Of a DNA stretch of 64,000 nucleotides, positions 32,257 to 35,926 are shown piece by piece. The notes under the pieces are model-generated. The model had not been told where the DNA came from and ran no database searches. It saw only the letters and a program-made list of their open reading frames with translations. Every line of letters starts with the position of its first letter. The first letter of the stretch is position 1. The position numbers and the translations under genes were made by a program. Location: the NCBI RefSeq assembly GCF_054482595.1, contig NZ_CM137008.1; one strand, written 5' to 3'.

Positions 32257-33717
<1,461 letters not shown>

Positions 33718-33734
33718 TTACAGGAAATAGTACC

Positions 33735-34046
33735 ATGCAGCCAAACGACATCACTTTTTTTCAACGTTTCCAGGATGACATTCTGGCTGGGCGTAAAACC
33801 ATCACCATCCGCGACGAGTCTGAATCGCACTTCAAAACGGGTGATGTGCTTCGTGTCGGGCGTTTTGAAGATGACGGTTATTTTTGCACGATTGAAGTCA
33901 CCGCAACCTCAACCGTAACGCTGGATACGCTGACGGAAAAACATGCAGAGCAGGAAAATATGACCCTGACTGAACTGAAAAAGGTCATTGCCGACATCTA
34001 TCCCGGTCAGACACAGTTTTATGTGATTGAATTTAAATGTCTTTAA
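33735..34046 (+). CDS. yqfB: ASCH-domain protein YqfB (N4-acetylcytidine amidohydrolase)
   Basis: ORF track 103 aa, [28 protein letters not shown]. Confidence 0.88.
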
Positions 34047-34206
34047 ATTGAACTCACGCCTGTTAGTTGAAATTTCGCATTTAATTTCATGATTTTTAGG
34101 AGATTAGTCTCAAATCAGAATTTATTTTAGCTAACAGGTGTTCACTGGAACTATTCTCAGTTACGCTGGAGAGGTATACATGTGCGTGTACGTTTCTCCG
34201 GAGTAA

Positions 34207-34869
<663 letters not shown>

Positions 34870-34876
34870 TGGGTAT

Positions 34877-34939
34877 GCCTTTGTAGGCCTGATAAGACGC
34901 GCCAGCGTCGCATCAGGCGATAAATGCCTGATGCGACAC
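34877..34939. repeat. REP/BIME-type palindromic repeats between yqfA and ygfZ
   Basis: gcctttgtaggcctgataagacgcgccagcgtcgcatcaggcgataaatgcctgatgcgacac contains REP consensus arms. Confidence 0.65.
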
Positions 34940-34945
34940 AGAGAT

Positions 34946-35926
34946 TTACTCTTCGAGCGAATACGGCAGCGGCTCGATATGCAATGTATTCGCATCGTCA
35001 CGTACGCGGAAGATGCTGTCCGGTTCCATATCGTTATTCATCACTACCTGTACCACGACCTGACCATCTTCCAGTTTTACCGCAGCCAGCACTGTACCGG
35101 TACGACGCCAGTTCTCGCCCATTTTCAGCTCTAAGTCTTCACCAGCTTCCGGCAGTCGGCTGGCACTACCTGTCAGCAACCAGAGCGCACGTTTATTGGC
35201 ACCACGGAATTTTGCTCGCGCCACCATCTCTTGTCCGGTATAACAGCCTTTCTTAAAGCTGATACCGCCCAGCGCCTGGAGATTGGTCGCCTGTGGGATA
35301 AACTGCCCGCTGTTCGCGGCATCAATCACCGGGAAACCCGCTTCAATGTTTAATGCCAGCCACTGTTGGCTATTGTTCAGTTCCGCTTCACCGCGCAGTT
35401 TATCGGTCAGCATATTGGCAGTAGCTTCATCGGTTACGATCAGGAAACGTTCTGCCGGGTGTTCAAACCATAGCAAAGTGGTCGCGCCTTCTTTAACTAC
35501 CTGTTTTTCTCTCGAAGGTAGTTCACTAAAGAGATTGGCCAGCGCGGCGCGCGCCTGAAAACCGGCAACACCAAGCAGCACACGCTCGTCGTCTGGCGCG
35601 ATGGTCACTTTAGAGAACACCGCATATTTTTTCAGTTCAGTCAGCTGCGGTTCACGCACGCTGCGCCGTTCAATCCACGCAAAGCCATCGCCGTCGCGGA
35701 ACAGACGTAAATTGCTCCACATTTTACCTTTGGCGTCGCAATGGGCGGCGAGCAGGTGCTGATTTTCTGTCATCTGGCTGACATCTGCTGTCACCTGGCC
35801 CTGCATATATTTTTCGCTGTCCGCGCCAGTAATGGTGGCAAGCGCCCAGTCATCAAGCGTCATCAGCGTCAGCGGTAAACGGGCAGAAGCCGTAGGCTGA
35901 CGTGGAGGAAAAGGTGTAAAAGCCAT
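34946..35926 (-). CDS. ygfZ: tRNA-modifying folate-binding protein YgfZ (Fe-S cluster repair)
   Basis: ORF track 326 aa, [44 protein letters not shown]. Confidence 0.92.

Follow-up and report, generated by a model that had tools for sequence, protein, structure and literature searches.

An inverted repeat upstream of trhA (yqfA) in Escherichia coli probably reflects two mirrored FabR-type boxes

Gene context and the inverted repeat

The repeat described here lies between yqfB and trhA in the window, i.e., the whole stretch of 64,000 nucleotides that was analysed. The upstream neighbour yqfB (33,735–34,046, plus strand) encodes an N4-acetylcytidine amidohydrolase, and the regulated gene trhA, also named yqfA (34,210–34,869, plus strand), encodes a PAQR-family membrane homeostasis protein. 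The region around the repeat is that of E. coli, and the 163-nt spacer separating the two coding sequences is identical to that of K-12 MG1655, so that a K-12 coordinate (NC_000913.3) is obtained as 3077358 minus the window position. On the minus strand, the locus is flanked by bglA (32,257–33,714) on one side and by ygfZ (34,946–35,926), which is convergent with trhA, on the other. Between the convergent trhA and ygfZ, the segment 34,886–34,962 gave a weak Rfam match to naRNA4 that stayed below threshold, at 37 bits where the gathering score is 59.5; naRNA4 is REP-derived, and the element may be of the REP type. Additionally, a supplementary table of PMC7815308 lists, among its entries, a 3′ end antisense to yqfA at K-12 3042772 (plus strand), corresponding to approximately 34,586 on the minus strand of the window, which probably stems from ygfZ read-through into the convergent trhA and possibly from Rho-dependent termination.

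The trhA loci of 80 species were fetched for comparison. Among the yqfB-bearing loci (n = 33, comprising the window and 32 fetched sequences), the spacer measured approximately 158–167 nt in most cases, and its two conserved blocks coincided with the two arms of the repeat. Some loci had a different upstream neighbour: in two of them (L003 and L020), yqfB was missing beside trhA and a divergent gene encoding an RpiR/MurR-like regulator was located about 260 nt upstream instead, while two others (L012 and L022) likewise had no yqfB match upstream of trhA. All four of these loci kept the trhA control region, including the distal box described below. A 112-nt region of the E. coli locus was present as a single copy per genome in 5,425 E. 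coli genomes, and an origin from a repeated element such as REP, BIME, ERIC or MITE was therefore rejected. One of the 5,425 places matching yqfB–trhA was on a plasmid record, and in genome EC22 (hit H30) the match fell into two separate places, suggesting that yqfB or the spacer is disrupted there.

The first-pass annotation had placed the arms of a perfect 8-nt inverted repeat at 34,069–34,076 and 34,131–34,138, with 54 nt between them. The arm sequences, CCTGTTAG and CTAACAGG, are indeed exact reverse complements, and the right arm is situated at 34,131–34,138 (plus strand) as described; the left arm lies ten bases further leftward, at 34,059–34,066 (plus strand), and the gap is therefore 64 nt, not 54. 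The sequence CCTGTTAG occurs at two places only in the window, on opposite strands. Taken alone, the perfect 8-mer inverted repeat is no more than chance would give: there are 187 perfect 8-nt inverted repeats with gaps of 3–100 nt in the window, and one or more turn up in 15% of shuffled spacers. The complementarity extends further, to arms of 18 nt, namely ACGCCTGTTAGTTGAAAT at 34,056–34,073 and ATTTTAGCTAACAGGTGT at 34,124–34,141 (both plus strand), which match by Watson–Crick pairing at 15 of the 18 positions (83%). The remaining three mismatches would all be G.U pairs in a plus-strand RNA, and the resulting 18-bp helix is the longest uninterrupted helix of Watson–Crick and G.U pairs with a loop of up to 100 nt on either strand of the window, the runner-up having 16.

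Both arms were unchanged in five other aligned E. coli strains. The perfect 8-mer is broken in E. albertii, whose left arm has the sequence CCCGTTAG, and conservation of the 6-nt core TGTTAG/CTAACA reaches more genera than that of the 8-mer. Poor conservation in close relatives, which the first-pass annotation had named as what would refute its reading, applies to the perfect 8-mer, which is specific to E. coli, and not to the motif pair, which is conserved over several genera.

The proximal FabR operator and the predicted trhA promoter

The right arm is located within the published FabR operator of trhA/yqfA, an experimentally validated site that we refer to as the proximal box (AGCTAACAGGTGTTCACT, 34,129–34,146; K-12 3043229–3043212). 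This box is an 18-bp imperfect palindrome like those of fabA and fabB and matches the core ACAnnTGTnnnnT given in PMC4804515. When scored with a matrix built solely from the FabR operators of fabA (AGCGTACACGTGTTAGCT) and fabB (GGCGTACAAGTGTACGCT), both read from K-12, the proximal box reached 16.0 bits and was the only position in the 64 kb scoring at least 14 bits; likewise, it provided the sole match to ACANNTGTNNGNT in the window. A FabR box was found upstream of trhA in all 80 of the 80 species loci, from Escherichia to Erwinia and Pantoea, with scores of 13–21.6 bits.

The gene trhA/yqfA has an established place in the FabR regulon (PMC9017321, PMC4804515, PMC11481535). The FabR box of trhA was mutated in PMC9017321 with the primer CAGAATTTATTTTAGCTAGTGGGTGTTCACTGGAAC, which, when compared to the window, changes ACA to GTG at 34,134–34,136, i.e., inside the right arm. 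According to that study, the mutation raised trhA expression and abolished the response to fabR deletion and oleate in a GFP reporter, the placement of the box with respect to the mapped start agreed with repression, and the response of trhA to FabR was as strong as that of fabB. Binding of FabR at the Salmonella yqfA promoter was reported by ChIP-chip and ChIP-qPCR (PMC4804515), and yqfA was derepressed in fabR deletion mutants of both Salmonella (PMC4804515) and Klebsiella (PMC11481535). Earlier in vitro work, as cited in PMC4804515, indicated that FabR binding depended on flanking DNA. Control of FabR and oleate repression by the proximal box is thus established by published experiment; as the documented FabR operator of trhA, the right arm brings no novelty.

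Regarding the promoter itself, a sigma-70 consensus scan of the locus returned no promoter match, and the promoter predicted here, which agrees with the consensus at 6 of 12 positions, was detected only by cross-species conservation. At a fixed offset of 15 nt past the proximal box, 99% of 79 distinct species contexts have a hexamer that fits TANNNT, with 12 different hexamers represented, and conservation of both sequence and length stops just past it; this combination is the signature of a −10 element. In the window, the predicted −10 hexamer is TACGCT (34,162–34,167, plus strand), and the 17-bp spacing places the predicted −35 hexamer TGTTCA at 34,139–34,144 (plus strand), in the right half of the proximal box. 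Two alternative −10 hexamers were rejected, namely TATTTT (34,123), since TANNNT fitted in 67% of the species only, and TATTCT (34,152), since the A at its second position was lost in several genera. The predicted trhA start site would be located at approximately 34,173–34,175 (K-12 ~3043184, minus strand). Relative to this start, the proximal box would span about −45 to −28, a classic position for a repressor, with the right arm at −43 to −36 and the left arm at −115 to −108. Because the box overlaps the predicted −35 hexamer, FabR bound at the proximal box would block RNA polymerase and thereby repress trhA, and unsaturated acyl thioesters or oleate would strengthen this binding.

Other conserved elements surround the predicted promoter. 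The A/T tract (A)TTTATTTT (34,120–34,128, plus strand) abuts the proximal box upstream, is near-invariant in all genera and, at about −54 to −46 from the predicted start, is possibly UP-element-like. The segment between the box and the predicted −10 hexamer, GGAAYCATTCTCAGT (34,147–34,161), which belongs to the predicted −35/−10 spacer, was near-invariant in about 80 species, from Escherichia to Erwinia; such conservation is far above what a promoter spacer usually needs and may mark a further protein contact, e.g., flanking contacts of FabR, or another factor. Further downstream, an 8-codon upstream open reading frame (34,180–34,206; ATG TGC GTG TAC GTT TCT CCG GAG TAA) overlaps the trhA Shine–Dalgarno sequence in E. 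coli. This reading frame was set aside as not conserved: E. albertii lacks the ATG, and the Citrobacter sequence differs.

The distal FabR-like box and the island between the boxes

The left arm is contained in a second, FabR-like sequence, the distal box (AACTCACGCCTGTTAGTT, 34,051–34,068), whose centre is situated 78 bp upstream of that of the proximal box. In E. coli, this box scored 6.8 bits with the fabA/fabB matrix, a matrix for which 68 positions in the 64 kb scored at least 6 bits; only its core and right half match, and its outer left half is not conserved. With a richer matrix composed of fabA, fabB and 34 distinct proximal boxes, and a background of 433,721 windows, the E. coli distal box had p = 2.2e-4 per window, or 0.0035 when corrected for 16 positions. 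By the same scoring, the best window located 75–78 bp upstream of the proximal box had p < 1e-3 and ranked in the top 0.05% of the background in 35 species, all belonging to the clade of Escherichia, Citrobacter, Salmonella, Klebsiella, Enterobacter and Kluyvera, and no comparable distal box was present in Kosakonia, Buttiauxella, Cedecea, Pantoea or Erwinia. The distance between the two boxes was 77 bp in 20 of these species, 76 in 8, 78 in 5 and 75 in 2; the proximal box, for its part, stood at a distance of 60–67 from the ATG in these species.

Scores at the distal position were considerable in several genera. With the fabA/fabB matrix, many species had a second box, located −146 to −151 from the ATG and scoring up to 17.6 bits; this highest score corresponded to Kluyvera ascorbata (TGCGTACATGTGTTAGCT), within a Kluyvera range of 13.7–17.6 bits, while Citrobacter gave 12.8–16.0 bits in several loci and lower values in others, Enterobacter gave 14.8–15.6 bits in two species, and two Klebsiella-group loci gave 11.6 bits. 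With the richer matrix, the distal boxes of Kluyvera and Citrobacter reached 16–25 bits and included near-consensus full palindromes such as AGTGTACACCTGTTAGCT (24.9 bits). Taking both matrices together, the distal position scored 10–25 bits in Citrobacter, Kluyvera, Enterobacter and Klebsiella. The distal box was also kept where a divergent RpiR-like gene replaces yqfB, and it is therefore part of the trhA control region and not of the 3′ end of yqfB.

The distal consensus gaACAnnTGTtAGtTGAAAta mirrors the reverse-complemented proximal consensus GAACACCTGTTAGCTAAAATA, and the two units are mirror copies over approximately 21 nt (GAACAnnTGTTAGCTRAAA), which is why the arms extend to 18 nt. Each arm belongs to a separate FabR-type box, an 18-bp palindrome, and forms the half of it that is better conserved. 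The earlier suggestion of a pair of half-sites was thus correct in recognizing the arms as half-sites and mistaken only in making them the halves of one site. The inverted repeat would arise from a FabR half-site with its flank (GAACAnnTGTTAGCT-RAAA) standing in mirror orientation in the two 18-bp palindromic boxes. When compared across genera, the boxes share one motif, are conserved and keep a fixed spacing, and covariation expected of a paired RNA is absent (see below); we consider two mirrored FabR-type boxes in DNA, and not an RNA stem, to be the source of the repeat, with a probability of roughly three in four.

As for its function, the distal box, at about −115 from the predicted start, would most likely be an auxiliary FabR operator, held at 75–78 bp from the main one, the DNA in between carrying a conserved IHF-like bend site. 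FabR would occupy the distal box, and the balance leans modestly towards the left arm marking such an auxiliary operator; in E. coli, the box may be a partly decayed one. No published FabR binding to the distal box was found in the literature searched, and a search for either box sequence returned irrelevant primer matches only. Likewise, no description of the distal box or of the island was found in a search whose scope did not extend to the primary FabR papers, so that an earlier description is possible.

The most serious alternative is that the conserved distal block (ACRnnTGTTAGYTGAAA) is the target of another protein or a promoter element, e.g., a −35 hexamer TTGAAA, its likeness to a FabR operator being incidental. 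Conservation runs past the 18-bp box into TGAAA, and another factor could therefore be involved; the unconserved outer left half-site and the weak E. coli score point in the same direction, and TTGAAA agrees with the −35 consensus at five of six positions. However, no conserved TANNNT follows 16–18 bp downstream of TTGAAA, where the conserved bases are TGATT, and a second promoter using TTGAAA (34,067–34,072) was rejected for want of a conserved −10 element at the proper distance. Moreover, the invariant bases AC..TGT..G are the high-information positions of FabR boxes, and the orthologous boxes of Kluyvera and Citrobacter are full palindromes close to the consensus, neither of which suits an incidental likeness. 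The FadR consensus is also a poor fit, with about 7 of 14 specified positions in a manual comparison with the fabA and fabB FadR sites, and on the same manual grounds a FadR site was rejected both at the distal box and in the conserved −35/−10 spacer. We therefore regard a target unrelated to FabR as unlikely.

The sequence between the boxes is AT-rich and otherwise poorly conserved, with the exception of an island of the form TAA-N4-(T/A)TGATT (34,082–34,094, minus strand), located near the midpoint of the box centres (34,098.5). Read on the reverse strand as AATCAT-N4-TTA, the island is near the IHF consensus WATCAANNNNTTR, from which the E. coli sequence departs by one mismatch (AATCAT). 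Among 38 species, 8 matched this consensus perfectly and 26 with one mismatch, compared with 1.2% and 21% of shuffles, respectively. The island co-occurs with the distal box across species, and this co-occurrence, together with the fixed spacing, indicates one clade-specific module. IHF may bind at the island, whose place midway between the boxes hints that they may form an auxiliary-operator or looping system. Beyond E. coli, the lineages of Klebsiella, Raoultella, Pluralibacter and Kluyvera (loci L015, L016, L021, L026, L038 and L060) have in common an extra conserved block, (G)TTTACAAATATTCATC, which lies between island and proximal box, is missing in E. coli and Citrobacter, and may be a lineage-specific regulatory site.

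A compound operator can be envisaged for the Escherichia, Citrobacter, Salmonella, Klebsiella, Enterobacter and Kluyvera clade, in which two mirror FabR boxes spaced 77 ± 1 bp apart, with an IHF-type bend midway, would allow two dimers and the bent DNA to form a loop or a wrapped complex. Both this arrangement and, more generally, cooperative or looped repression assisted by a bend protein are tentative proposals that we hold to be rather improbable. Auxiliary operators and looped repression with a bend site between the operators are known from lac O1/O3, from gal OE/OI with HU, and from IHF-assisted loops. Like those systems, trhA has two copies of one operator motif at a conserved distance, an AT-rich spacer and an IHF-like island near the midpoint; in contrast to them, its 77-bp spacing corresponds to about 7.3 helical turns, a non-integral number, and the likeness is one of sequence. 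TetR-family dimers, those of FabR and DesT among them, are not known to form tetramers, a point that weakens the looping model. DesT of Pseudomonas aeruginosa is a FabR homologue of the TetR family that senses the saturation of its acyl-CoA ligand, and its dimer binds one palindromic operator overlapping the promoter. It shares with FabR the use of one dimer per palindromic, promoter-overlapping operator, and it differs in the organism and in the target, desCB; dual mirrored boxes are not known for DesT. If true, the compound operator would be an architecture undescribed for FabR or other TetR-family lipid regulators.

When compared to the other FabR targets, the boxes of fabA, fabB and trhA are alike in being imperfect palindromes of 18 bp that contain the core ACAnnTGT and the half-site TGT(W)(M)GCT, and the right half of the fabA box, TGTTAGCT, is identical to the arm motif of trhA. 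Each of the three boxes overlaps the core promoter of a FabR-repressed membrane-lipid gene. Their organization differs in three respects: the box of fabA and fabB occupies the 17-bp spacer that separates the −35 hexamer TTGTTC from the −10 element, whereas that of trhA overlaps the predicted −35 hexamer; a FadR activator site adjoins the boxes of fabA and fabB, whereas none was found at trhA; and trhA has a second, FabR-like box 78 bp upstream, whereas fabA and fabB have none at about 77 bp. Weak FabR-like matches, probably due to chance, were located about 157 bp upstream of the fabB box (GGGAAACAGGTGTACCCT, 5.8 bits, locus L084) and about 234 bp upstream of the fabA box (AGTGAACTGGTGAAAGCG, 3.5 bits, locus L083).

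RNA structure, coincidence and implications

The first-pass annotation had also proposed that the repeat could form a large stem-loop in the 5′ leader of yqfA and had named covariation across species as a check. On the E. coli sequence alone, an RNA hairpin looked plausible because of the strong plus-strand fold (−28.9 kcal/mol, z = −5.2, with none of 200 shuffles folding as well) and the length of the helix. An 86-nt hairpin of this kind would have to belong to a yqfB–trhA read-through transcript or to a long trhA leader starting upstream of 34,056, and could serve in processing, for instance as an RNase III substrate, in stabilisation of the yqfB 3′ end, or in attenuation. Several features of E. 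coli speak for it: the minus-strand fold is weaker (−20.3 kcal/mol, z = −3.3), the 18-bp helix is uninterrupted when G.U pairs are counted, the occurrence of all three arm mismatches as G.U pairs on the plus strand mildly favours RNA in E. coli itself, and read-through from yqfB into trhA is possible since no terminator was found between the genes.

The comparison across species, however, goes against a conserved RNA. In the 38-species alignment, the 18-bp helix paired in 83.6% of cells, against 83.4 ± 0.6% when partners were shuffled; the covariation score was 0.102 compared with 0.100 for shuffled partners, and there were 3 pairs with a double change against a shuffle mean of 3.6, the variable pairs mostly breaking. 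Uncompensated arm changes were present in many lineages, such as CTTACA in Kluyvera and TGTGAG/CGAACA elsewhere, and the perfect 8-mer is already lost in E. albertii. RNAalifold did not predict the 18-bp helix from the species alignment, an Rfam scan of 33,000–35,200 at E ≤ 10 gave no match in the spacer, no terminator-like sites were found within 33,600–34,400, and no conserved structure was found in the predicted real leader (34,168–34,221). Since the covariation, RNAalifold, Rfam and terminator tests were all negative, the complementarity of the arms is conserved as sequence and not as structure.

The position of the repeat is equally unfavourable to an RNA element. The predicted start near 34,174 is downstream of both arms, so that neither arm would be part of the trhA leader, and the motif pair is kept in species without any gene transcribed into it. 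The Term-seq tables of PMC7815308, as far as their entries go, show no 3′ end assigned to yqfB, which is a weak negative for a hairpin at the yqfB 3′ end. An intrinsic terminator of yqfB was rejected as well, given a loop of 50–64 nt, the lack of a T run after 34,141 and the lack of a terminator-like site. With structured 5′ leaders, riboswitches and attenuators, the locus shares a long predicted hairpin upstream of a coding sequence; in contrast to them, the trhA arms show neither covariation nor an Rfam family and stand upstream of the predicted promoter. A stem-loop in the yqfA leader is thus unsupported, and a hairpin in any longer transcript seems to us decidedly improbable. Pure coincidence, i.e., an 8-nt inverted repeat arising in an AT-rich spacer with no shared cause, would fit the abundance of such repeats in the window and in shuffled spacers but is very hard to reconcile with arms that fall in the two most conserved spacer blocks, with pairing of 83.6% in register against 32–47% when the partner is slid by 1–3 columns, and with a box spacing conserved across genera.

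Returning to the two mirrored FabR-type boxes, the case is mostly one of ordinary, known FabR regulation, to which a probable, apparently undescribed auxiliary box is added. The modest new value resides in the left arm, which points to a FabR-type box conserved at a fixed distance, apparently undescribed, accompanied by a conserved island resembling a bend site. A caution follows for similar loci: where palindromic operators are duplicated, a promoter region can yield a long hairpin that folds well as a by-product. If functional, the distal box could help to explain why the response of trhA to FabR is as strong as that of fabB (PMC9017321) and, as far as the account cited in PMC4804515 goes, why FabR binding depended on flanking DNA. 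With a simple reporter, the trhA boxes would also allow cooperative binding by a lipid sensor of the TetR family to be tested.
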